46,104 nucleotides of DNA, from positions 1-46,104 of the forward strand of contig JAHFNY010000003.1 in the NCBI GenBank assembly GCA_023267075.1, written 5' to 3'. This DNA comes from Candidatus Vogelbacteria bacterium. Its GTDB lineage: Bacteria > Patescibacteriota > Minisyncoccia > Phycocordibacterales > XYD1-FULL-46-19. Positions 33,658 through 45,557 of the stretch are shown one piece after another (the stretch's first letter is position 1; every line of letters begins with the position of its first letter). A program made the position numbers and the translations under genes. The notes below the pieces were generated by a model. That model searched no databases, was not told where the DNA came from, and saw only the letters and a list, made by a program, of their open reading frames with translations.

Positions 33658-34398
33658 TTATTTAGTCCAAAAGCTTTCAAAAATCGCCCGGAGGGTAAAG
33701 TTGACCGCCCGGCTCCGGAGGATGATGCCAAACATTTCTTCCTTCTGATAAGAGACGAAGGCGACTTTCTGCCGATAAATATAAATACCGAGAGTGAACG
33801 GGTAATCGTCTACCGGTAGATATTTAACCTGTTCCAATTCCTCCGGCCGGGGTGAGATTTTATAATCCTTTTTGCTATCGCCGGTTAAATTAATATTAAC
33901 GCGGCGCATTTTTATCCCACTGGCAATTCGGCGTGGTTCCCAATCGTGTTGGAGAAAGTCGATAATGGTGGGGGAAATAAGATCTTTAGGCGCGGCTAGA
34001 GCCATAATGTCACCTGGTTTCTTGATCATATCGTCATAAATCTTTTCTAAACCAAGCTTGCCTTCATAAATTCTTACCGCTGGCTTCTTAGCTACATTGT
34101 TCTTGAGCGCTTCTAGCTCGGGTAAGATTTGTTTAAAAATATTCTCGCGTTGTTTTAAGAATAAGCCTACATTATCCGGTTCTTCCATAATAAACACTTT
34201 TTTCTTGCCTTGTTGACTGGCATTGACCAACTTCTTTTCTCGCAAACTATTTATAATCTCATAAATGGTTGTTCTTTTAATGGCCGATTCTGCTGCCAAG
34301 TCTTGAATCGTGGCCGGACCAAGTTGGAGACCGGCCAGGTAAAGCTTGGCTTCTTTCTCATTTAAACCAATTTTCTGCAAGTAATCTTCTAAGATCAT
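33658..34398 (-). CDS. TrmB-family transcriptional regulator (second paralog)
   Basis: LQKIGLNEKEAKLYLAGLQLGPATIQDLAAESAIKRTTIYEIINSLREKKLV. Confidence 0.85.
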   Translation of the reverse strand: MILEDYLQKIGLNEKEAKLYLAGLQLGPATIQDLAAESAIKRTTIYEIINSLREKKLVNASQQGKKKVFIMEEPDNVGLFLKQRENIFKQILPELEALKNNVAKKPAVRIYEGKLGLEKIYDDMIKKPGDIMALAAPKDLISPTIIDFLQHDWEPRRIASGIKMRRVNINLTGDSKKDYKISPRPEELEQVKYLPVDDYPFTLGIYIYRQKVAFVSYQKEEMFGIILRSRAVNFTLRAIFESFWTK

Positions 34399-34589
34399 AA
34401 TTAAGTTTAATTATAATCCTGTCAGCTTTTCCGTCAACATAATTTTCTAAAATAACTTTATTTTATAAGCTATTAACAGTTATTTTAATAAATTATGACT
34501 TTTTTACTGACTAGTTTCACTTAATCGCTTATTCTAGAATCAGGTTTAATTATCGACCTTTGACAATTGAAAATCGGAAGGAGGGGAAG

Positions 34590-35186
34590 ATGACTAAATT
34601 GTTGATGATGGTAATTACGGGCGGCCCTTGTGGCGGCAAAAGTTCTGTACTCACTAAATTGACCGAAGTATTTTCTGACTTAATTGCCGTTGTACCGGAA
34701 GCGGCGACTCAATTGTTGAATGTCTGTCCCGTTCCGGAGCGCGACTGCCCATTGAGCGATACCTGGTTAAGAATTTTCCAACCAGCGGTTTATCACACCC
34801 AAATAGCGGCAGAAGATGGTTGGGCCTTGTTGGGAAAGAGACTTTTAGTTTGTGATCGCGGAGCAATGGATGGCGCTGGTTACTTGAAGGATAAAGAACT
34901 CTTCTTGTCTTTAATTGGCCAGCAAGAAGAAACTATTTTGCAACGTTATTGGACGGTGATTCATCTTGAGTCATTGGCCGTAGGCCAACCGGAGAAGTAT
35001 CTAAAACTTAAGCAGAGCAATCCCAATCGTTATGAGGGTGTCGTTGAGGCGCGAGCGGTTGATGTCTCAATCTGCGCCGCTTGGGCCAATCATCCACGCC
35101 AGATTATCCTTTCTAGTCTTGATTCACTTGAGCATAAGGAAGAATTCGTCATCAACCTAATCAGGGAGGGAATTGGCCATGAATAA
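34590..35186 (+). CDS. AAA_28/NadR-kinase-like P-loop protein
   Basis: GGAAGGAGGGG RBS before the ATG at 34590. Walker A VITGGPCGGKSS. Confidence 0.65.
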   Translation: MTKLLMMVITGGPCGGKSSVLTKLTEVFSDLIAVVPEAATQLLNVCPVPERDCPLSDTWLRIFQPAVYHTQIAAEDGWALLGKRLLVCDRGAMDGAGYLKDKELFLSLIGQQEETILQRYWTVIHLESLAVGQPEKYLKLKQSNPNRYEGVVEARAVDVSICAAWANHPRQIILSSLDSLEHKEEFVINLIREGIGHE

Positions 35187-35679
35187 AAACGGGAAAGAAA
35201 TTGAGCGGAAGTGGTTCTTGGCTTGTATGCCACCCATTGGAATTTATGGCGATTGTAATCAAGTGCCACTACATGAGATTGAGCAGTTTTATTTTAAGAC
35301 CCAGAAGTCGGGGACAGAACTGCGAGTTCGTCGGGAAGGAGCAGGTTTTTCCATAACGGAAAAAAGTGGTAACGGTCTAGTCCGAGAGGAAACAGAGATC
35401 GCTATCACTAAAGAGATGTTTCTTGCTCTCCAGCCGCTAGCCATTGGCTCAGCAAGAAAACGGCGTTTCTTTATTCCTCACCAGGGAAGAACATTACTAC
35501 TCGATCAATACCTTGGACCTTTGCAGAATCTTGTGATTTTGGAATGTGAGTTCTCGTCCAAAGAAGAATCGGCGGAGTTTGTTCTTCCGGATTGGGCGCA
35601 GGTACCAATTGAAGTGACAGAAAGTCCCCGTTTCAGCAACAAGCTTCTGGCTCTTAATGGTTTCCCGGGCGCGCCATAG
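35173..35679 (+). CDS. CYTH-domain triphosphate tunnel metalloenzyme
   Basis: The EIERKWFL N-terminal signature, ELRVRR and REETEI strands. Overlaps the upstream gene by 14 nt. Confidence 0.8.
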   Translation: MAMNKNGKEIERKWFLACMPPIGIYGDCNQVPLHEIEQFYFKTQKSGTELRVRREGAGFSITEKSGNGLVREETEIAITKEMFLALQPLAIGSARKRRFFIPHQGRTLLLDQYLGPLQNLVILECEFSSKEESAEFVLPDWAQVPIEVTESPRFSNKLLALNGFPGAP

Positions 35680-35696
35680 GCGCGCCTTTTTCTTTT
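35668..35696 (+). terminator. Intrinsic terminator
   Basis: GGCGCGCC-ata-GGCGCGCC hairpin followed by TTTTTCTTTT. It overlaps the TAG stop. Confidence 0.65.
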
Positions 35697-35760
35697 GACC
35701 TTTTGGCGGTAGAATGGTGATAGTAATAGAGCTTAATTTTATTAGCTTAATAACTTATTT

Positions 35761-36810
35761 ATGATAAAAAAATTGTTTTTAGTGTTGTTGGTTCTGGCTT
35801 TGGTCCCAAGCTTGGCCAGTGCCGCTACTTTACAGACCAATAGCCATTATTTTTTGCCGCTTGGGCAAACAGTTAACGGCAATTTATACGTCGCGAGTGG
35901 CAATACCACTGTGGCGGGTAATGTAAATGGCGATCTGTATCTTGGAGCTGGCACCGCGACGATTACTGGTGAAGTCCGTGGCGACTTGGTAGTGGCCGGT
36001 GGCACAGTGACAGTGACGGGGGTGGTGGATGGAGACTTGCGCGTCTTGGGTGGCAATGTGACTGTGGCGGGCCCGGTGAGGGGAGATGTCTTCGTTATTG
36101 GCGGTTCATTATCTTTAAGTGATGCCGTAGGCGGTGATGCTGATTTTATTGGCGGGATGCTCTCGGTGGAGAGTGGCGCTACCGTAACTGGCCGTTTGGT
36201 GTATCGCTCTAATAGCGAAGCGCGGATTAGTAATCAAGCGGTAATCCGCGGGGGAGTAACATATGATCAAACTTTGGCTAAAAGCATTGGGATTGTGAAG
36301 GAGGCAGGGGCGAAGTCAGTTGTCTCGGGCTTTGCCGCCCTCCTGGGAGTGTGGATTTTCTTAAAATTATTGATGTATCTCTTTGCGGCGCTCGTCTTCT
36401 ATTGGTTATTTCGGCCGTACTTGGAAGGAATTGTTCATCAAGCGGTAAAGATGCCTGGTCGCGCTCTTGGCGTGGGCTTTATTACTCTCGTGGTGGTGCC
36501 GGCTTTGGCTCTCGTCTTCGCTATTTCTATTGTTGGTTTGCCCTTGGCGATTATTTTAGGCTTGGCCTACTTAATAATCTTGGGGGTAGCTAAACTTTCT
36601 GCTGGCGCTTTAATTGGGGCGTGGGGAGAGAAGATTATTCTTAAGCGGGCTAATTATCGGGTGGGTTGGCAGGGGGTAATTGGTGGTACTTTGGTCTTAT
36701 TTATCCTAATGTTTATCCCCGTGATTGGTTGGATTATTGCGGCCCTCGCTTGCTTACTTACCTTTGGCGCCATTGCCGACGTGGTGTATAAAAAGTGGCT
36801 CGCTAGGTAG
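35761..36810 (+). CDS. Membrane protein with bactofilin-like beta-helix repeats and a C-terminal polytopic domain
   Basis: Signal peptide, then repeated G-x-V-x-GDL/V units (VAGNVNGDLYL, ITGEVRGDLVV, VTGVVDGDLRV, VAGPVRGDVFV), then 4-5 TM helices. Confidence 0.7.
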   Translation: MIKKLFLVLLVLALVPSLASAATLQTNSHYFLPLGQTVNGNLYVASGNTTVAGNVNGDLYLGAGTATITGEVRGDLVVAGGTVTVTGVVDGDLRVLGGNVTVAGPVRGDVFVIGGSLSLSDAVGGDADFIGGMLSVESGATVTGRLVYRSNSEARISNQAVIRGGVTYDQTLAKSIGIVKEAGAKSVVSGFAALLGVWIFLKLLMYLFAALVFYWLFRPYLEGIVHQAVKMPGRALGVGFITLVVVPALALVFAISIVGLPLAIILGLAYLIILGVAKLSAGALIGAWGEKIILKRANYRVGWQGVIGGTLVLFILMFIPVIGWIIAALACLLTFGAIADVVYKKWLAR

Positions 36811-36825
36811 CGATTGACTAAGTGG

Positions 36826-36853
36826 TTGACTTTTTAACTGATTCGTGTATACT
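36826..36853 (+). promoter_or_regulatory. Promoter of the RRM gene, giving a 5' UTR of about 100 nt
   Basis: TTGACT (36826-36831), 16 nt, TATACT (36848-36853). The UTR contains the hairpin GGCGA..TCGCC at 36903-36928. Confidence 0.5.
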
Positions 36854-36958
36854 AAAGGGGTTGTAAGTTCTCCGTTTCTTAAGTTCCCCAAACGCGCGAG
36901 CGGGCGAGGCGAGAACGTGAGGGTCGCCTTACACGCTACTAGTTTTAAGCGCAAGAAA

Positions 36959-37219
36959 ATGGCTAAAAAGTTATACGTTGGTGGTTTACCTTACTCTACT
37001 TCCAACGACGAGCTTAAGGACGCTTTCTCCCAAGCTGGGAACGTAGAATCGGCTACTGTCATCACTGATAAGATGACTGGTCGTTCTAAGGGATTCGGCT
37101 TCGTAGAAATGAGTTCTGATGCCGAGGCCCAGAAGGCAATTGACCTCTGGAACGGCAAAGATTTCGGTGGGCGCAATCTCACCGTGTCTGAAGCTCGCCC
37201 CCTCGCTCCTCGGAATTAA
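36959..37219 (+). CDS. RRM-type RNA-binding protein
   Basis: KLYVGGLPY (RNP2) and KGFGFVEM (RNP1). Confidence 0.9.
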   Translation: MAKKLYVGGLPYSTSNDELKDAFSQAGNVESATVITDKMTGRSKGFGFVEMSSDAEAQKAIDLWNGKDFGGRNLTVSEARPLAPRN

Positions 37220-37235
37220 TCCTTAGAGCAAAAAA

Positions 37236-37272
37236 CCGGCTCAAGCGTATAAAAGCGCTTGGGCCGGTTTTT
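37236..37272 (+). terminator. Hairpin terminator between convergent genes
   Basis: CCGGCTCAAGCG..GCGCTTGGGCCGG followed by TTTTT, with an A-run upstream. Confidence 0.55.
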
Positions 37273-37282
37273 CGTTGGCGAC

Positions 37283-37573
37283 TTAGGTTCTTGTGCATAC
37301 CCCTTCCCCCGAGACTTGCTGTTGATCCAACCAATTCTTCATCTCTGGTAATAGTCTCTCAAATTTGTCACCCTTAACAAAGATGACAAAGTTTAACTCA
37401 GGGCCACTAGACTCTAGAGTTAAGAGAATCTGATACCCCAACCCGGGGTCTTTTGAAGTTAAAGTTGAGATGAGAGTTTTTCCCTCTTCAACATCTTTCC
37501 GATTCATGTGGATTAGCGTCTTGTTATAAACAAACGCCTGAAATTTACCGACGATATCTTTTAGATTATTCAC
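37283..37573 (-). CDS. Hypothetical protein (about 96 aa; GTG start)
   Basis: AGGAGG sits 8 nt upstream of the second GTG (37573). No recognisable family. Confidence 0.5.
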   Translation of the reverse strand: MNNLKDIVGKFQAFVYNKTLIHMNRKDVEEGKTLISTLTSKDPGLGYQILLTLESSGPELNFVIFVKGDKFERLLPEMKNWLDQQQVSGEGVCTRT

Positions 37574-37654
37574 TTTTCTCACCTCCTTTCAAAAGTAGGT
37601 TAAGTTTAATCGCCAACTTGTAGAAGACCCTTCTACTTTAAGTCTAGCGCACTT

Positions 37655-37725
37655 TCGGGCTGCCGGGAATCGAACCCGGTCTATACCCACCCCATGGGCA
37701 CGTACTACCGGTATACTACAGCCCG
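37655..37725 (-). tRNA. tRNA-Pro(GGG)
   Basis: Minus strand: acceptor CGGGCTG/CAGCCCG, anticodon stem TGCCC/GGGTA, loop ATGGGGT, T-loop TTCGATT. Confidence 0.9.
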
Positions 37726-37845
37726 TAAACACGCCAAATGTAACACGTTTTTCAGGATTTTTCTAGAATTGGACGGCGGGGCCTTTCTTTCGGTATACTG
37801 CGGTTAGTTAGTTATTTTGCCACTCATACTAAGAGGGGAAATCAG

Positions 37846-38262
37846 ATGGGTAGACATTTTTGTCGCAATGGATGTCGTGGTAATGGGAAGAATCAGAGGA
37901 CTATTAGGAGAATTATCTGGGCCTCGGACCATCCTCTGGGAAAGGAACAACTCAAGGTATTGCAAGAGCTTCATCCTGATTTGCGGGTAAACTGGGATCC
38001 AGGTCTTATCGGGAATGACTGCGATTCCGCGGTCAAAGCTTTAAGAAAATGCCATGATGCCTTCGTGTATCTGGTGTGCAGTAAGGCTCAAAAGACAGTG
38101 TTGGATCTCGAGTGTGGGCGCGATCGGAGTTTGTCATACGGCTTTTTCTCAAAAGTCAGGCATAATGAAGGTCGGGAGAACTTTGATTTTGTTTTTCAAG
38201 TTTCCCACGGCGAAATGGAAGTGGTTTGGGAACGCAGAAAATGTTTGGCCGAGGTTGTGTAA
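37846..38262 (+). CDS. Hypothetical Cys/Arg-rich protein (138 aa)
   Basis: ORF followed by a strong terminator. No recognisable family. Confidence 0.55.
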   Translation: MGRHFCRNGCRGNGKNQRTIRRIIWASDHPLGKEQLKVLQELHPDLRVNWDPGLIGNDCDSAVKALRKCHDAFVYLVCSKAQKTVLDLECGRDRSLSYGFFSKVRHNEGRENFDFVFQVSHGEMEVVWERRKCLAEVV

Positions 38263-39334: not shown

Positions 39335-39607
39335 TTATTTAACCGCGTCTTTGAACGCTTTCGCGGGGCGGAACTTTGGCACCTTCATGGCGGCAACTTG
39401 GACCGAGGCGCCAGTGCGCGGATTGCGCGCGGTGCGCGCGGCTCGTTGCTTAACCGAGAAAATGCCCAAGCCGGCAATGGAGACCTCGCCGCCCTTCTTT
39501 AAAGTGCCAACGATGGAATCAATGACTTTATCTACGGCTTGCTCGGCTTGCACCTTAGTGCCGCCTAAAACCTCGTGGACAGCATCCACAATGGCCATTT
39601 TATTCAT
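39335..39607 (-). CDS. hup: HU-family DNA-binding protein
   Basis: GFGIF-like GLGIFSVKQRAARTARNPRTG arm. 90 aa. Confidence 0.9.
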   Translation of the reverse strand: MNKMAIVDAVHEVLGGTKVQAEQAVDKVIDSIVGTLKKGGEVSIAGLGIFSVKQRAARTARNPRTGASVQVAAMKVPKFRPAKAFKDAVK

Positions 39608-39728
39608 AAAAATAAATTGGGCTTACTTTTTAATAAGACGACCTAGTTTTCTCCACCTGTTTTAAGTATATAACTGGCCCTTTTTAAGCGCAATAGAGCC
39701 ATATTTTAGCGGGGATAAGTGAAAATAC

Positions 39729-39757
39729 TTGACTTTTAATCTGATATATGCTAAGAT
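39729..39757 (+). promoter_or_regulatory. Cassette A promoter
   Basis: TTGACT, 17 nt, TAAGAT. Same geometry and the same -10 as cassette B. Confidence 0.65.
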
Positions 39758-39765
39758 TAAGCAAT

Positions 39766-39820
39766 AGCATTAATCAGCTCTGTTCCTTGAAATTGTTTCT
39801 ACGCCACCATTCAGGCGATT
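39766..39820 (+). promoter_or_regulatory. Conserved 5' leader motif, copy A
   Basis: AGCATTAATCAGCTCT..TTGAAATTGT..CGCC-ACCATTCA-GGCG-ATT. It aligns with copy B at 40740-40791. Confidence 0.5.
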
Positions 39821-39891
39821 ACCGAGAGGTAGAAAACACTTACGGTCATAATGACTGTAAGTAATTGCCTGATGGCAAGGAGAAAATAGTT

Positions 39892-40116
39892 ATGAGTGTG
39901 AGGCATCCCAAAGTGACTGGCACCAAGAGAGCCGACGTGGCTCTCTTCGGGGATGAGGAGGCCAAGAAGTATGGTCTCCACCCCCGTCGAACCGGCCGAG
40001 CCGGTCGAGGGAAAAAAAGAAGTTACCCCGACGACCGGGATGATAATTTCCCGGCCGCGGTGAAAAATCGTTCCTGGAAGAGGTATCGCCTCTTCCAGAG
40101 AAGAAAGGGGAAGTAA
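39892..40116 (+). CDS. Highly basic small protein (74 aa)
   Basis: AAGGAG sits 8 nt upstream of the ATG at 39892. No recognisable family. Confidence 0.5.
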   Translation: MSVRHPKVTGTKRADVALFGDEEAKKYGLHPRRTGRAGRGKKRSYPDDRDDNFPAAVKNRSWKRYRLFQRRKGK

Positions 40117-40118
40117 AA

Positions 40119-40394
40119 ATGGAAAGGAAATTTATGATGGGGACCGTGGCCTTCTTCCACGGTTTGGACATCACCAGGCCAGCGTCAACTGGCCTGGACA
40201 CCGTAGAAAATGTGTTCGAGGTAGAGGGAGAAGAAGAATTCTCCTATCTCGGACACTGGGTTGTAGGACTCGGTTTCCTCGGGGTCAAATTCCCCAAGGA
40301 AACATCCCGAAATCTGACGGCGGATGAAGAAGAGTTTTGCCGTCAAAAAAGCATAATCATCGGGGGTAATAAAATACCCCTGATGGGAAGGTAG
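40119..40394 (+). CDS. hypothetical protein (91 aa)
   Basis: ORF 2 nt after the upstream stop. No recognisable family. Confidence 0.5.
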   Translation: MERKFMMGTVAFFHGLDITRPASTGLDTVENVFEVEGEEEFSYLGHWVVGLGFLGVKFPKETSRNLTADEEEFCRQKSIIIGGNKIPLMGR

Positions 40395-40401
40395 ACAACA
40401 A

Positions 40402-40584
40402 ATGAGTACAAAAATGATCTTTGTCCTTTCGGTTGCGACCTCCGTGGTCGCAACTATGATTAGTACTGTCGGCTTTTGGGCTGCTGGTTTCCACCCCATA
40501 ATGGGGCAGCTGGTTAGCACACCAGCCGCTCTGATTATAGGAGTCATGGCGGGGAGAGCAGCCGCCGTAAAAAATTTTAAGTAA
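40402..40584 (+). CDS. Small 2-TM membrane protein (60 aa)
   Basis: Two hydrophobic helices. GGAAGG lies upstream. Confidence 0.5.
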   Translation: MSTKMIFVLSVATSVVATMISTVGFWAAGFHPIMGQLVSTPAALIIGVMAGRAAAVKNFK

Positions 40585-40603
40585 TCACTAAGGTGGTTAC
40601 TAC

Positions 40604-40640
40604 CCGCGCCGAGAGCGAAAGCTCCGGCGCGGTTTTTTAT
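40604..40640 (+). terminator. Cassette A terminator
   Basis: CCGCGCCG-AGAGC-GAAA-GCTC-CGGCGCGG followed by TTTTTTATTT. Confidence 0.7.
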
Positions 40641-40704
40641 TTCTCGGTTTTTGTTTTAACGTTTACTTTTCCTTTTATATGATAATCTTATTGTATTAAT
40701 TAAC

Positions 40705-40733
40705 TTGACAAATATATTATCTTATGATAAGAT
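40705..40733 (+). promoter_or_regulatory. Cassette B promoter
   Basis: TTGACA, 17 nt, TAAGAT. Confidence 0.65.
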
Positions 40734-40739
40734 ACAGGT

Positions 40740-40791
40740 AGAGCATAAATCAGCTCTTTGAAATTGTCTTTACCCCACCAATCAGGGGATT
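40740..40791 (+). promoter_or_regulatory. Conserved 5' leader motif, copy B
   Basis: AGAGC-ATAAATCA-GCTCT-TTGAAATTGT-CTTTA-CCCC-ACCAATCA-GGGG-ATT. Confidence 0.5.
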
Positions 40792-40833
40792 CTGTTCCCA
40801 ACTGTTGGTCCTAAATGAAAAAGGAGACGAACT

Positions 40834-41277
40834 ATGAAGACCCTGATAACGAACGCATTTTCCCTTAACATGCTTGGAATTTTTCCGTCACAGATTGTGG
40901 TGGCAGAGATTTCCAAGGAACTTGCCACCGCACTCGCCACTTCAGCTTCAGCGGAAAGTGTTGTTGGTCATTTCGACACTGCCAAGTTGTTTAGTAGTGT
41001 GTTGGGAATAGAAATACCTGCCAACCGAGTGACCGTCACTCTTACCAGCGAGGAACAACTTCTCGTTGGTCAATACCGTGGTCCACGGTTGCCGGAAGGA
41101 ACGACTACTCTTCCTGAGGGAGCCACAATCCAATGGTTCCTGGTATATCTTGTGTCGTACACTCCAGATAGGGACATTTGCATCCACTGTAGCCACGATA
41201 ACGGGATTATCCACCCCGGTCATTGCTGGGGAGAGCACCGTGTCGGGATGGATTGTTGTTACTGCGGTGGTAACTGA
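40834..41277 (+). CDS. DUF1874 (STIV B116-like) domain protein with a Cys/His-rich C-terminal extension
   Basis: TLITNAFSLNMLG...VVGHFDTAKLFSSVLGIEIPANRVTVTL...LPEGATIQWF resembles the B116/DUF1874 pattern. The tail is CIHCSHDNGIIHPGHCWGEHRVGMDCCYCGG. Confidence 0.6.
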   Translation: MKTLITNAFSLNMLGIFPSQIVVAEISKELATALATSASAESVVGHFDTAKLFSSVLGIEIPANRVTVTLTSEEQLLVGQYRGPRLPEGTTTLPEGATIQWFLVYLVSYTPDRDICIHCSHDNGIIHPGHCWGEHRVGMDCCYCGGN

Positions 41278-41315
41278 TAACTAAGGAGGATATTAAGTAA
41301 AAAACTGTTAATTTG

Positions 41316-41355
41316 CCGCGCCGGGAGCGAAAGCTCCTCGGCGCGGTATTTTGTT
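41316..41355 (+). terminator. Cassette B terminator
   Basis: CCGCGCCG-GGAGC-GAAA-GCTCC-T-CGGCGCGG followed by TATTTTGTT. Near-identical to the cassette A terminator. Confidence 0.7.
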
Positions 41356-41373
41356 ATTCTAATTTTTAGATTT

Positions 41374-42903
41374 CTAACGAGCAAACTCAATGATCCGGGT
41401 CTCGCGCATCACTACTACTTTGATTTCACCCGGGTACTTAAGTTCTTGTTCAATCCGGACGGCGACCTCGCGGGCGAGTTTGCGCGCTTCCAGGTCGGTA
41501 ATCTCTTCCGGTTTAACGAAGACCCGGATCTCCCGGCCGGCGGCAATGGCGTACGTCTTCTCAATCCCTTTAAAGGTATTAGCAATATCTTCTAAGTCTT
41601 TCAGCCGTTTCAAGTAATTCTCTACCGAGTCGCGGCGAGCGCCAGGGCGCGAGCCCGAGATCTCGTCGGCCACTTTCACGATAATGGATTCAATCGTTTC
41701 ATATGGATATTCCTCATGATGAGCTTGCATTGCTTTAATCACCGCCTCGCCAGCGCCAAACTTCTCTAAGATCCGCCGGCCAATTTCCACGTGGGTACCA
41801 GGGACTTCATGATCCACGGCTTTACCAATATCGTGGAGGAGAGCGCCGGCTCGAGCGACTTGAATATCGGCACCCAACTCCTCAGCAATCATGGCCGCCA
41901 GGTGCGCCATCTCAATGGAGTGTTGGAGCACATTCTGGCCATATGAGGTGCGGAAGTGGAGTCGGCCCAAGATAATTAAGATTCGCGGGTCCAAGTTTAA
42001 GACGCCGGCTTCATAGGCAGCTTGCTCGCCCTTCTCTTTAATAATTTTAGAAATGTCTTCTTTAGCTTTATCTACGGTTTCTTCAATCTTGGCCGGTTGG
42101 ATCCGACCGTCTTTAATCAAATTCTCCAGCGCCACCCGGGCAATTTGCCGGCGGACTGGGTCAAAGGAGGAGAGGACGATGGAGCCAGGGGTGTCATCAA
42201 TAATTACTTCCACGCCAGTCGCTTTTTCAAAGGCTCTAATATTGCGCCCTTCTTTGCCAATAATCTTGCCTTTAATATCGTCGGAGGGGATGTCTACGGT
42301 AGTGGCCATCACTTCTGGCACAGTGGAGGAGGAGAGACGCTGAATGACCGAGGCCAAGATGTCCCGACCGCGTTGTTCTAAGCGCTCGGCGCCAGTGGTC
42401 TCTAATTTTCGCATTCGGACTATCAAGTCTTCTTCGGATTCTTGTTCTACGGCTTTCAAAAGTTCGGTTTTGGCCTCATCTTTGGTTAAATTACTTACCC
42501 GCTCTAATTCTTTAGTTTTATCTTGAGCGAGTTGGGAGACCTTTTCTTTAAGCTCTTTAATTTCTTCGGCCTTTTTCTTCAGACTATCGGCCTCTTGATC
42601 AATATCGGTCTGGCGCCGATCTAAGAGCTCGTCTTTCTTTAGAAGGCGATCCTCCAACTTTTTAAGTTGGGTTTCTTTTTCCTCATTTTTGGTTTTAGCC
42701 TCGGTGAGGATTTTGGTCGCTTCTTCTTCTGCTTCTTTAGTAATTTGCTGGGCTTGATCCTTGGCTTCAAGCATGGCTTGTTTCACCGAGAGCTCAAGCG
42801 ACCCCTTCTGGCTTAAGGTGACGAGCCAGCGGAGGAAGTAGCCAATGACCACACCAGAAAGACCGGCCACGCCGGTAAGGAGGATAATGGTGACTAAGTT
42901 CAT
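41374..42903 (-). CDS. rny: ribonuclease Y
   Basis: N-terminal TM, coiled coil, KH (GKIIGKEGRNIRAFE) and HD (LLHDIGKA). Confidence 0.9.
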   Translation of the reverse strand: MNLVTIILLTGVAGLSGVVIGYFLRWLVTLSQKGSLELSVKQAMLEAKDQAQQITKEAEEEATKILTEAKTKNEEKETQLKKLEDRLLKKDELLDRRQTDIDQEADSLKKKAEEIKELKEKVSQLAQDKTKELERVSNLTKDEAKTELLKAVEQESEEDLIVRMRKLETTGAERLEQRGRDILASVIQRLSSSTVPEVMATTVDIPSDDIKGKIIGKEGRNIRAFEKATGVEVIIDDTPGSIVLSSFDPVRRQIARVALENLIKDGRIQPAKIEETVDKAKEDISKIIKEKGEQAAYEAGVLNLDPRILIILGRLHFRTSYGQNVLQHSIEMAHLAAMIAEELGADIQVARAGALLHDIGKAVDHEVPGTHVEIGRRILEKFGAGEAVIKAMQAHHEEYPYETIESIIVKVADEISGSRPGARRDSVENYLKRLKDLEDIANTFKGIEKTYAIAAGREIRVFVKPEEITDLEARKLAREVAVRIEQELKYPGEIKVVVMRETRIIEFAR

Positions 42904-43092
42904 GGTAGTTTTTAAGGCCTACCGACCTCTAAACCTCTTTAGGTACGGGGCGACAATGACTTTGTGGACAAATTCATTAACATGAGAGTTAAAAAGTTTA
43001 GGGTAAGTAGAGCTTGACGTTTTACGCTATTAATTTAAGGACCCCTCTATCGTAACAGACGAGGGGATTAATGTCTAGTGAAGCTTAATTAT

Positions 43093-43674
43093 TTAGTGTT
43101 TGGGCTTAACGATCTCGTCAATGATCCCGTACTTTTTGGCTTCCTCCGCAATCATCCAATAGTCGCGCTCGGCGTCTTTCTCAATTGTGGGCATAGTCTG
43201 GCCTGTGTTCTTGGCCAAGATCTTGTTTAAAGCTTCTTTGGTTCTTAAAATGTGTTTAGCGGCGATAGCAATATCAGTGGCCTGACCTTCTACCCCGCCC
43301 ATTACTTGGTGGATCATTACTTCTGAATTAGGGAGGCAAAAGCGCTTATTTTTAGTCCCGGCTGAAAGGATTACGGCCGCGGCGGAGGCGGCGATACCCA
43401 CACATACAGTAGAAACATCAGGCTTAACGTGATTCATGGTGTCTAAAATAGCAAGACCGGCGGTCACTGAACCACCGGGTGAGTTGATGTAAAGGGTAAT
43501 ATCCTTCTTAGGATCTTCTGACTCCAAGAATAAGAGTTGGGCAATGACTAAATTGGCGGTGTGATCATCAATTGGGCCACCCAAAAAGATAATCCGCTCC
43601 TTTAAGAGACGGGAATAAATATCATAGGCCCGCTCGCCAAATTGAGACTTCTCAATAACTGTGGGAATTAACAT
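43093..43674 (-). CDS. clpP: ATP-dependent Clp protease proteolytic subunit
   Basis: [11 protein letters not shown], catalytic context [12 protein letters not shown]. Confidence 0.95.
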
Positions 43675-43685
43675 AGATTTTGATT

Positions 43686-44549
43686 TTACTCCTTTTTACT
43701 CTCGCCTTCAAGTAGCTGCCAAATCTCGTTCATAGTTTTTAAATTTTCTTGTTTAGCAATCTCGCTGAAGATTAAACCAAATTTAGCCCGCTCCAGGGCT
43801 TGGTCGCGCCAGTCAGCCTTTAAATCAGCTTCCGTTTTCTTTAGATGTTTTAAGTAGTCATCAAACTTGATGCCAAAGTGAGCAGTATTGTGTTTAAATT
43901 CAGCGAGCATCTTCTCTAATTCGCCCTCGATTATGATTGAGGGTAAATCTAAAGTCATCGCACTGGTGATGGCCTGCATAATTTCTAAACGCCGCTTTTC
44001 TTTAGCGCCATATTCTTTTTCTAATTTTAAATTATTTTTGATTTTCTCGGGCCAGTCTTCTTTCTTCACTTCCGGATTGGCAATGTTCTGCTCTTCTAAT
44101 TCTTTAATGATTTTTTCTACCTCCTCGGCTTTTACCTCTTCTACTACTAGAGGATTGGCCGTAATTTTACCGGCCAACTTTTTATAATCCGGTAGTTTAA
44201 CTTCCGGATAAATAGCGGTGATGATAGTAAAACCAAGAGGATTATCGACAGCCAGTTTGGTAAGACTAATTTCTGGTTGGCCAAGAGCGTCAACCTTCTC
44301 TTCTTTAAGTATCTCCGGGTAAACTTGGCGGAAAGCTAATTCTGCCATCGTGGTGAGTACTTTGCCTTCACCAATTGTTTCCACCAGCAATTTCTCCGGC
44401 GCTTGGCCGGGGCGGAAGCCTTTAAGAGTTACCTTCTGACCCAATTCTTTAAGCGCCGCTGGGCGATAACTCATAAATTGCTCGGTTGGGACCTCACCTT
44501 TAAGCTCTACCCGCGACTCTGACAAATTTTTCTTCTCTACTTTGATCAT
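43686..44549 (-). CDS. tig: Trigger factor lacking the FKBP/PPIase domain (287 aa)
   Basis: The GFRPGQAP ribosome-binding motif in the N-domain and C-domain-like helices. No PPIase-like segment lies between them. Confidence 0.8.
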
Positions 44550-44569
44550 GTTTGGCTAGAATAAACAAA

Positions 44570-44593
44570 AAACCCAATTTTGGCAAATTGGGT
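44570..44593. terminator. Bidirectional intrinsic terminator
   Basis: AACCCAATTT-tggc-AAATTGGGTT, flanked by an A-run and a T-run. Confidence 0.65.
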
Positions 44594-44618
44594 TTTTTGT
44601 TTCCTATTTATCTGATTT

Positions 44619-44906
44619 TTACTGGGCGGAAGTGTTGAGCTCGGTTTGAATGTCGTTTACACCGGCATCAAGGTTGTTTAAATTAGTCGCGTTAATCTCT
44701 TGTTTAACAGCAGTAGCCTCAGTGGAGGTGCTCTCTGGTCCTAAGTCTATATCAGAAGGGGGAGTGGTGGCGGTCATCTCACCGCTTAATGAGGCATTTT
44801 TCTGATTTAGGAAGATATAGACGCCGCCCACAATGAGCAGGAGAATGATGACAATAATACCAAGAATCGGACCCTTAGGCTCTTTTTCAGTTGAGAGATT
44901 ATCCAT
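44619..44906 (-). CDS. Small membrane-anchored hypothetical protein (95 aa)
   Basis: Single TM (ILGIIVIILLLIVGGVYIF). Confidence 0.55.
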   Translation of the reverse strand: MDNLSTEKEPKGPILGIIVIILLLIVGGVYIFLNQKNASLSGEMTATTPPSDIDLGPESTSTEATAVKQEINATNLNNLDAGVNDIQTELNTSAQ

Positions 44907-44918
44907 ATTATTTATTAC

Positions 44919-45557
44919 TTAAATAAGTTTAATGGCTTCGACTAATTTGACGTGAATATCTTTAATATCTTGAATGATGGTAGAAACAGCCTCGTGAACC
45001 GCTTTAAACTGGGCAGGGACGGTGGTAGAAGCGGTGCTACTTGCCACAATAAGGCTAATTTGATTGGGTAAATTGTTGACTAAGACTTGAGTGGAGTCAA
45101 TCATCGTTTTTGCTTCCCCAAGTTTGGTCTCAATTTGGCTGGCATTAGTTACGGGATTAGAAGAAGTAGCTCGTTGATCAAGAATAAATTGAATCCGAGT
45201 GATAAAACGACTTTCTCGAGCGAGAGCGGCAGTGAAGCGAGCAACGAATTTATCAGCTAAAGCGCCAATGCGCTGTTCTCGTAGATCACGGATTTTTAGT
45301 CGGGCCTCGTCGCGGATTTTTAAGCGATCGTCAGTATTGGTAGCATTTTTAAGATCATCATGGCGATCCTCTTTAGTGTCCTTAATATTGCTTCTAATCT
45401 CTTCCACTTTCTGACGGTATTCTTCCCTAATTTGTTGGAAGGAACTAGGGGTAGTGCTTGAGTTATTATCTTCGGCTAAAGCTAAAACTGGAACCATAAC
45501 TGGAGTAAGAACGAGACTGGTCGTTACTAACCCCGTGAAAAGTTGTTTGGTAGTCAT
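44919..45557 (-). CDS. Secreted coiled-coil hypothetical protein (212 aa)
   Basis: Signal-like N-terminus and a charged helical body. Confidence 0.6.
   Translation of the reverse strand: MTTKQLFTGLVTTSLVLTPVMVPVLALAEDNNSSTTPSSFQQIREEYRQKVEEIRSNIKDTKEDRHDDLKNATNTDDRLKIRDEARLKIRDLREQRIGALADKFVARFTAALARESRFITRIQFILDQRATSSNPVTNASQIETKLGEAKTMIDSTQVLVNNLPNQISLIVASSTASTTVPAQFKAVHEAVSTIIQDIKDIHVKLVEAIKLI

Follow-up and report, generated by a model that had tools for sequence, protein, structure and literature searches.

The window, by which we mean the whole 46,104-nucleotide stretch of Candidatus Vogelbacteria DNA that was analyzed, carries two tandem gene cassettes between rny (RNase Y) and hup (HU). 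We compared this spacer among the nearest relatives with retrievable DNA. In L029 (87% RNase Y identity), L030 (82%), and L027 and L028 (both 81%), rny is directly followed by hup. Because the spacer is empty in those four, the 1.7 kb holding both cassettes is an insertion. L025 and L026 (85% RNase Y identity) have one different cassette in the slot, and the 158-aa protein that it encodes has no Pfam family on record and no PADLOC match. The slot is thus variable, with nothing in four relatives, one gene in two, and two cassettes in the window. It lies at 39700-41370 in the window, 4660-5440 in L025, 2937-3730 in L026, 11531-11676 in L027, 2107-2200 in L029 and 9531-9644 in L030. A gene for an RRM_1 RNA-binding protein lies 2.5 kb upstream (36845-37219, + strand) and in a similar position in L025 and L027; we found no link between it and the leader described below.

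Each cassette opens with one copy of an approximately 90-nt element that occurs twice in the window, both times on the + strand (copy A, 39729-39820; copy B, 40705-40791). A promoter scan placed promoter A at 39729-39757 (+), with TTGACT, a 17-nt spacer and the extended -10 TGc-TAAGAT, and promoter B at 40705-40733 (+), with TTGACA, a 17-nt spacer and TGa-TAAGAT. Their predicted transcription start sites are at about 39764 and 40740. Among the promoter-like sites of the region, these are near-consensus sites of the sigma-70 type (TTGAC-N17-TGnTAAGAT). A conserved leader begins 7 bases past the -10 hexamer, at the predicted +1, so that the block lies wholly within the predicted transcript. ORF and promoter scans gave no convincing minus-strand promoter or gene beneath it. 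The cassette of L025 and L026 has a promoter clearly orthologous to promoter A (GGG-TAA-..CTTGAC-N17-TGCTAGACT). Its leader is non-homologous, having only TTAATCAG in common with copy A and folding into an unrelated hairpin, and the terminator of the L025 cassette is also different.

Cargo A (39892-40584, +) consists of three tightly packed small ORFs of 74, 91 and 60 aa. The 74-aa ORF (39892-40116, +) has a good Shine-Dalgarno (SD) sequence and encodes a very basic, Arg/Lys-rich protein; this ORFan has no homologue but itself among 5.8 billion clustered proteins and no domain in Pfam or PHROGs. The 91-aa ORF2 (40119-40394, +) belongs to an uncharacterised family with 135 remote homologues at E <= 1e-3. 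Some of these are domains within proteins of 300-880 aa, and none of the ten homologues scanned had a Pfam match. The 60-aa protein appears to be hydrophobic.

Cargo B (40834-41277, +) is a single gene for a 147-aa STIV_B116-like/DUF1874 protein (AcrIII-1/Crn2 family), with matches in Pfam (5.1e-8), PHROGs (2e-17) and PADLOC (Csx16, 2.6e-9). The AcrIII-1/Crn2 cA4 ring nucleases belong to this DUF1874/STIV_B116-like family (10.1101/778746). The protein in this CPR chromosome has a Cys-rich C-terminal extension, CIHCSHDNGIIHPGHCWGEHRVGMDCCYCGG. A homologue on L020 (P0053, 146 aa) is 46% identical over 99% of the query. No CRISPR-Cas genes were found among the annotated neighbours of the DUF1874 gene.

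Both cassettes end in intrinsic terminators. Terminator A (40604-40638, +) consists of CCGCGCCGAGAGCGAAAGCTCCGGCGCGG followed by TTTTTT, and the near-identical terminator B (41316-41352, +) directly adjoins rny (41374-42903, minus strand) at its 3' end. They have the form CCGCGCCG(A/G)GAGCGAAAGCTC..CGGCGCGG plus a T-run, with one difference in a 21-nt core, and this sequence is unique to the two sites in the window. Since the terminators are near-identical as well, the cassettes share 5' and 3' regulatory ends around unrelated cargo. The GC content of the cassettes is host-like, so a foreign composition is unsupported. Integron gene cassettes with attC sites were considered and rejected because both units have their own promoters and terminators and no integrase is annotated in the interval from 33.6 to 45.6 kb.

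The arrangement is reminiscent of the phage "morons" that Hendrix and colleagues are said to have described, namely genes that are lodged between two others and bring along a promoter and a factor-independent terminator of their own. Here, too, a promoter, one or more genes and an intrinsic terminator make up each unit, inserted where relatives have two conserved genes side by side, and what the units carry is either ORFan or phage-like (DUF1874/AcrIII-1 family). Unlike morons, the cassettes reside in a CPR bacterial chromosome rather than a prophage, and a common promoter, leader and terminator is not a trait that defines morons. The genes flanking the slot are core genes (tRNAs, an aminotransferase, HU, RNase Y, ClpP and trigger factor), which makes this a resemblance to morons and not membership. 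Taken together, the two copies appear to be a real promoter/5'-UTR module that is specific to this lineage and shared, along with a matching terminator, by two tandem, separately transcribed, moron-like cassettes.

The conserved leader is 52-57 nt long. Its elements are, in order, AGAGC/ATAGC-ATWAATCA-GCTCT (hairpin 1 of the first-pass annotation), GTTCC (copy A only), the linker TTGAAATTGT, YTYTA, CSCC-ACCAWTCA-GGSG (block 2, or hairpin 2) and GATT. Leader A spans 39764-39820 (+), with hairpin 1 at 39764-39781, the 5-nt GTTCC insert, the linker at 39787-39796, and hairpin 2 at 39802-39817, followed by GATT. Leader B spans 40740-40791 (+), with hairpin 1 at 40740-40757, the linker at 40758-40767, and hairpin 2 at 40773-40788, again followed by GATT. 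The linker has exactly two mismatch-free occurrences in the window, at 39787 and 40758. When the leader alone was searched against the whole window with nhmmer, the copies were recovered at E = 6e-18 and 1.6e-15, so that the kinship of A and B is far beyond chance.

Conservation is concentrated in the leader. The two promoters have the same hexamers, yet their spacers are identical at only 7 of 17 positions. The leader is identical at 45 of 52 positions, as against 9 of 23 for the promoter spacer plus the stretch from -10 to +1 (Fisher p = 5.7e-5, for a comparison that, like all those of the leader, involves two sequences from one genome). Identity is 10/40 directly after GATT and 12/39 upstream of the -35 hexamer. 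The highest values are those of the linker (10/10) and the loops (7/8), bases for which no helix accounts. A 5-nt indel between the two AWTCAG motifs has been tolerated, giving a motif spacing of 37 bp in A and 32 bp in B. The leader thus stands out as conserved where the sites around it have decayed to background, which points to constraint on the leader itself and counts against a plain recent duplication. Judged from the two sequences, the leader looks to be under selection beyond simple shared descent.

A leader peptide was considered as well, since a TTG at 39787 and at 40758 opens the frame MKL(F/S)L(R/P)H(H/Q)SGD. We rejected it: there is no SD, the start is TTG, three of the five in-frame differences are non-synonymous, and the ends differ. 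The TTG frames that cross the block run from 39787 to 39864 (25 codons) and from 40758 to 40814 (18 codons) and, having no SD, are probably not translated.

Searches for further copies were negative throughout. No third copy was found in the window with nhmmer --max, mismatch-tolerant patterns or a covariance model. The covariance model (R1) of the two copies, which the first-pass annotation had proposed to build, gave copy A 86.5 bits and matched only A and B in the window and in the loci of the relatives. Among 185,579 species-representative genomes (GTDB), a pattern that left the stems free gave 15 matches, all random, non-CPR and lacking stems or promoter. A JGI metagenome pattern scan gave 6 unrelated matches, about the random expectation. 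Three of four pattern scans of IMG/VR were empty, and the fourth, with a loose pattern, gave at least 120 loci that are chance matches, several of them inside coding sequences. These collection scans demand an exact match at 20-21 positions, so that a copy differing at the chosen positions by as much as A and B do would be missed. Distant-mode BLAST against phage records found nothing, and the HU sequence had exact matches only in two short contigs that do not differ from the window. The first-pass annotation had taken a lack of additional homologs as evidence against its proposal, and as far as these searches reach, no additional homolog was found.

Known RNA families gave no match either. 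At the gathering threshold, Rfam found six tRNAs and nothing else in the whole window; at E <= 10 over 39650-40900, no match overlapped either leader. The leader lies outside every curated RNA family and is not an established RNA class. It is also absent upstream of the DUF1874 homologues of 46-66% identity in L018, L020, L157 and L159, and it therefore does not travel with the DUF1874 gene. At 4818-5000 of L020, a CPR-like contig, a distant DUF1874 gene has an approximately 150-nt leader behind a consensus promoter; among the few such genes viewed, this leader forms a long hairpin (GAGTGTAGCT...AGCTACACTC) unrelated to the leader under study.

The first-pass annotation had read the element as a cis-regulatory RNA with two hairpins. 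Its description of hairpin 2 was borne out, with CGCC-ACCATTCA-GGCG at 39802-39817 in A, CCCC-ACCAATCA-GGGG at 40773-40788 in B, and a G>C change in one arm matched by C>G in the other. The strings given for hairpin 1 were also correct (AGAGC-ATAAATCA-GCTCT at 40740-40757 in B and ATAGC-ATTAATCA-GCTCT at 39764-39781 in A), although a U-C mismatch in A had gone unmentioned. Both loops do end in AWUCA. Across the two sequences, then, one pair of hairpin 2 is compensatory (C-G to G-C), and one pair of hairpin 1 is broken in copy A.

The two-hairpin segments (55-60 nt) fold at -7.7 kcal/mol in A and -13.0 kcal/mol in B, with z = -0.5 and -1.85 relative to shuffled sequences. Because the hairpins contain only Watson-Crick pairs, the opposite strand folds no less well. 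A compensatory double change in a hairpin of at least 4 bp arose in 9% of null simulations with random substitutions in copy B and in 3.7% of alignment column shuffles, which puts the chance probability of the single compensatory change in the 4-bp hairpin 2 at p of about 0.04-0.09. In structure-pair count, the real two-sequence alignment was not separable from its shuffles (239/500). In transcripts truncated just 3' of hairpin 2, both hairpins are highly probable. The pair probability of hairpin 2 is 0.86-0.99 in these transcripts and falls to 0.00 once the next 20-60 nt are added. We consider the two-hairpin fold weakly supported. Hairpin 2 would be, at most, a transient co-transcriptional fold that is displaced by a long-range helix.

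That helix is predicted to bring block 2 next to the SD. In the minimum free energy (MFE) folds of both copies, CCAWuCAGGSGA pairs just upstream of the SD. The 5' strand in copy A (39807-39819, +) is CCAU-u-CAGGCGAU, which shares bases with the loop and the 3' arm of hairpin 2 (pair probabilities 0.3-1.0). The 3' strand (39864-39875, +) is AUUGCCUG-AUGG and stops 1 nt short of the SD AAGGAG (39877-39882, +), which precedes the start codon at 39892. The copy B strands are CCAA-u-CAG-GGGA (40778-40789, +) and UCCC-aa-CUG-UUGG (40796-40808, +), with the SD AAGGAG at 40821-40826 and the start codon at 40834 (+). The first-pass annotation had pointed to GCCTGATGGC before the SD of copy A as a possible partner of hairpin 2. 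It does pair there in the MFE fold, but it lies at 39867-39876 and not at 39866-39875. The alternative structure near the ribosome-binding site that it proposed for A is recovered as this long-range helix, and B is predicted to form it too.

Once the 3' strand has been transcribed, the helix has pair probabilities of 0.6-1.0. In copy B, transcripts ending at the AUG give 0.8-1.0, and adding the start of the coding sequence lowers this to 0.2. We tested the 12-nt 5' strand for duplex formation with its own downstream sequence, using shuffled downstream sequences as controls. The duplex energies were -14.8 kcal/mol for A (p = 0.0036) and -11.3 kcal/mol for B (p = 0.021), for a Fisher combined value of 8e-4; these p-values are optimistic because the strand was picked after the folds had been seen. 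When the whole 19-nt block was used instead, the copy B duplex was not significant (p = 0.23). The full leader A folds with z = -3.85.

The sequence differences between the copies are also consistent with the long-range helix. Where loop 2 has U in copy A and A in copy B, the 3' strand has A and U, respectively (CUGAUGG and CUGUUGG), and the GG[C/G]G difference is matched as well. In total, 11 pairs are shared; two of them show double changes, one alternates between G-U and G-C, and none is broken, a count in which the A/B homology of the 3' strands is assumed, as they lie in otherwise unalignable sequence. From these comparisons and the predicted folds, the long-range helix appears better supported than the two-hairpin model.

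The surroundings of the helix differ between the copies. In copy A only, the 5-nt insert creates UUCCUUG (39782-39789), which can pair with the SD (CAAGGAG), and the long-range helix encloses a perfect hairpin of 11 bp (39838-39862), ACUUACGGUCA-UAA-UGACUGUAAGU. In copy B, UUGUCU of the linker pairs beside the SD, so the extension is unlike that of copy A. The extension on the SD side may reflect merely a pyrimidine-rich sequence meeting a purine-rich one. Copy B also has an alternative pairing of AUCAGGG (40781-40787) with CCCUGAU (40841-40847, DUF1874 codons 3-5), which places the SD and AUG in one loop (P ~0.76).

As an explanation for the conserved leader, we tentatively favor one that is possible while falling short of an even chance: the leader may work as RNA, with block 2 forming a long-range helix that structures the initiation region. 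The host is, by its RNase Y homologues, a Paceibacteria/Vogelbacteria-like CPR bacterium, with the cassettes inserted between rny and hup. Each cassette consists of a promoter with an extended -10, a leader conserved over about 55 nt from the predicted +1, unrelated cargo and a near-identical intrinsic terminator; the shared module would act at the RNA level. CCAWuCAGGSGA of block 2 would be the 5' strand, and CUGWUGG with neighbouring bases upstream of the SD the 3' strand. The pyrimidine-rich linker and, in A, UUCCUUG would extend the fold over the SD. Hairpin 2 would be replaced by the long-range helix, leaving the initiation regions of both operons embedded in structure, so that translation would be set or repressed and mRNA stability perhaps affected.

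The strictly conserved unpaired bases imply sequence-specific recognition, and AAUCAG (present twice) and UUGAAAUUGU are candidate recognition sites for a trans-acting factor that would co-regulate both cassettes. Hairpin 1, at the extreme 5' end, may serve as a weak 5'-terminal stem-loop. Stabilising stem-loops of this kind are found at the 5' ends of the ompA and aprE leaders, for example. Like them, hairpin 1 begins at the predicted +1 and has no 5' single-stranded overhang. Unlike them, it has a weak stem of 3-5 bp, with a mismatch in copy A.

The cis-acting part of the first-pass reading is thus reasonable, because the leader is confined to the predicted transcript, conserved above the level of the spacer, tolerant of an indel and in part complementary to the region 5' of the SD; the two-hairpin architecture as its functional fold is unsupported. 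A more elaborate version of the RNA-level reading strikes us as improbable. It would make the leader a lineage-specific RNA switch in which compensatory changes preserve both a transient hairpin 2 and the mutually exclusive long-range helix over the ribosome-binding region, and in which a trans-acting factor reading AAUCAG and UUGAAAUUGU turns on accessory, possibly anti-defence, cassettes, one of them of the AcrIII-1/Crn2 type.

One point against the favored RNA-level reading is that the most conserved bases could be read equally well on DNA. The block might be a pair of DNA operators, bound by a transcription factor such as a roadblock repressor at +1 to +55, with the inverted repeats reflecting half-site symmetry. 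This would explain why the primary sequence is best conserved in what the RNA model draws as loops and linker, and it fits a block that abuts the promoter and "hairpins" whose inverted repeats are perfect, 4-5 bp long, separated by 8 bp and made up of Watson-Crick pairs only. L025 and L026 also keep TTAATCAG at a similar position past the orthologous promoter. However, the AWTCAG spacings of 37 and 32 bp are half a helical turn apart, which is awkward for a bridging factor, and the arms of the two repeats are unrelated (AGAGC and CSCC), so one dimer would not read both. Half-site recognition gives no rationale for the symmetric G>C and C>G change, a conserved stretch of 55 bp is longer than one would expect of an operator, and no regulator gene was found in the cassettes with Pfam, PHROGs or PADLOC. 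We regard DNA operators as unlikely.

The leader may also have no function. A promoter-terminator scaffold would then have been duplicated or spread by gene conversion, with different cargo placed in it, and only the hexamers and terminator stems would matter. The two copies are the only ones and lie 1 kb apart in one genome, and the terminators are duplicated too; the relatives show no conservation, and no homologues were found elsewhere. A plain duplication would be expected to decay evenly, whereas here the leader and the sequence adjoining it have diverged to the very different extents given above. A conversion tract would have to begin exactly at +1 and skip the spacer. We doubt this explanation about as much as the operators.

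We give little credence to a leader in which two independent hairpins offer their A(A/U)UCA loops to a dimeric protein that binds RNA, or which forms a ligand- or sRNA-responsive aptamer. The recurrence of AWUCA at the close of both loops and the compensatory pair in hairpin 2 speak for such a leader, and the high probability of both hairpins in truncated transcripts means that they could exist co-transcriptionally. Hairpin 1 is nevertheless broken in A, the stems of 4-5 bp with 8-nt loops have energies no different from those of shuffles, hairpin 2 vanishes from the full-length leaders, and its compensation is of borderline significance. Rfam is silent even at the relaxed threshold, there are no homologues and so no covariation, and the downstream genes have no common ligand-related function. 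Two generic marks of a riboswitch are likewise missing: pattern and covariance-model searches found no aptamer conserved across genomes, and no common metabolic or transport pathway lies downstream. For the dimeric RNA-binding protein proposed in the first-pass annotation, and for a riboswitch reading, we found no evidence at all.

Two known systems bear on the same drawing. In the E. coli thrS operator, two anticodon-like hairpins are bound by the dimeric enzyme. The present element resembles thrS and other SD-sequestering leaders in that conserved leader sequence separates promoter and SD, that one of its 5' segments can pair at the ribosome-binding site, and that it has two similar loops. 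Unlike in thrS, what lies downstream appears to be unrelated accessory genes instead of a gene for an RNA-binding protein that regulates itself, the first ORF of cassette A being a very basic ORFan in which no domain was detected; the hairpins are also much shorter, and there is no phylogenetic covariation or known cognate protein; the thrS-type comparison comes down to one compensatory and one broken pair between two sequences, in hairpins no stabler than shuffles. The put RNAs of phage HK022, putL and putR, each consist of two stem-loops just past a promoter and act in cis on RNA polymerase. They share with our element the two copies per genome, the promoter-proximal position and the two-hairpin drawing. 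They differ in having long stable stems where ours are 4-5 bp, and there is no sequence or Rfam similarity. No terminator-like site was found between either leader and its first gene. With two copies and no relatives found, a two-hairpin regulatory RNA is unproven.

It is hardly credible that the repeated ends are recombination joints of mobile cassettes (integron-attC-like or Campbell-type) with hairpins acting in single-stranded DNA: the rny|hup slot is variable, from empty in L027-L030 to one cassette in L025 and L026 and two in the window, and the repeat units bracket unrelated cargo, but no integrase or recombinase is present among the Pfam-annotated ORFs at 33658-38262 and 39335-45557, the cassettes own promoters and terminators, unlike integron cassettes, no R'/R'' core sites were seen by eye in the repeated ends, the cassette GC is host-like, and the terminator of the L025 cassette differs.

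The leader resembles SD-occluding leaders and inserted genes framed by a promoter and terminator, and if real it would be a lineage-restricted example of these. At present, it is a single-genome lead for holders of full MAG sets or metatranscriptomes. Should it prove to be a real RNA-level control element, it would join the handful of cis-regulatory RNAs so far reported from CPR/Patescibacteria, and it would show that small, reduced genomes wire acquired genes, including a cA4 ring-nuclease homologue, into one control circuit through a reused promoter-leader-terminator frame.
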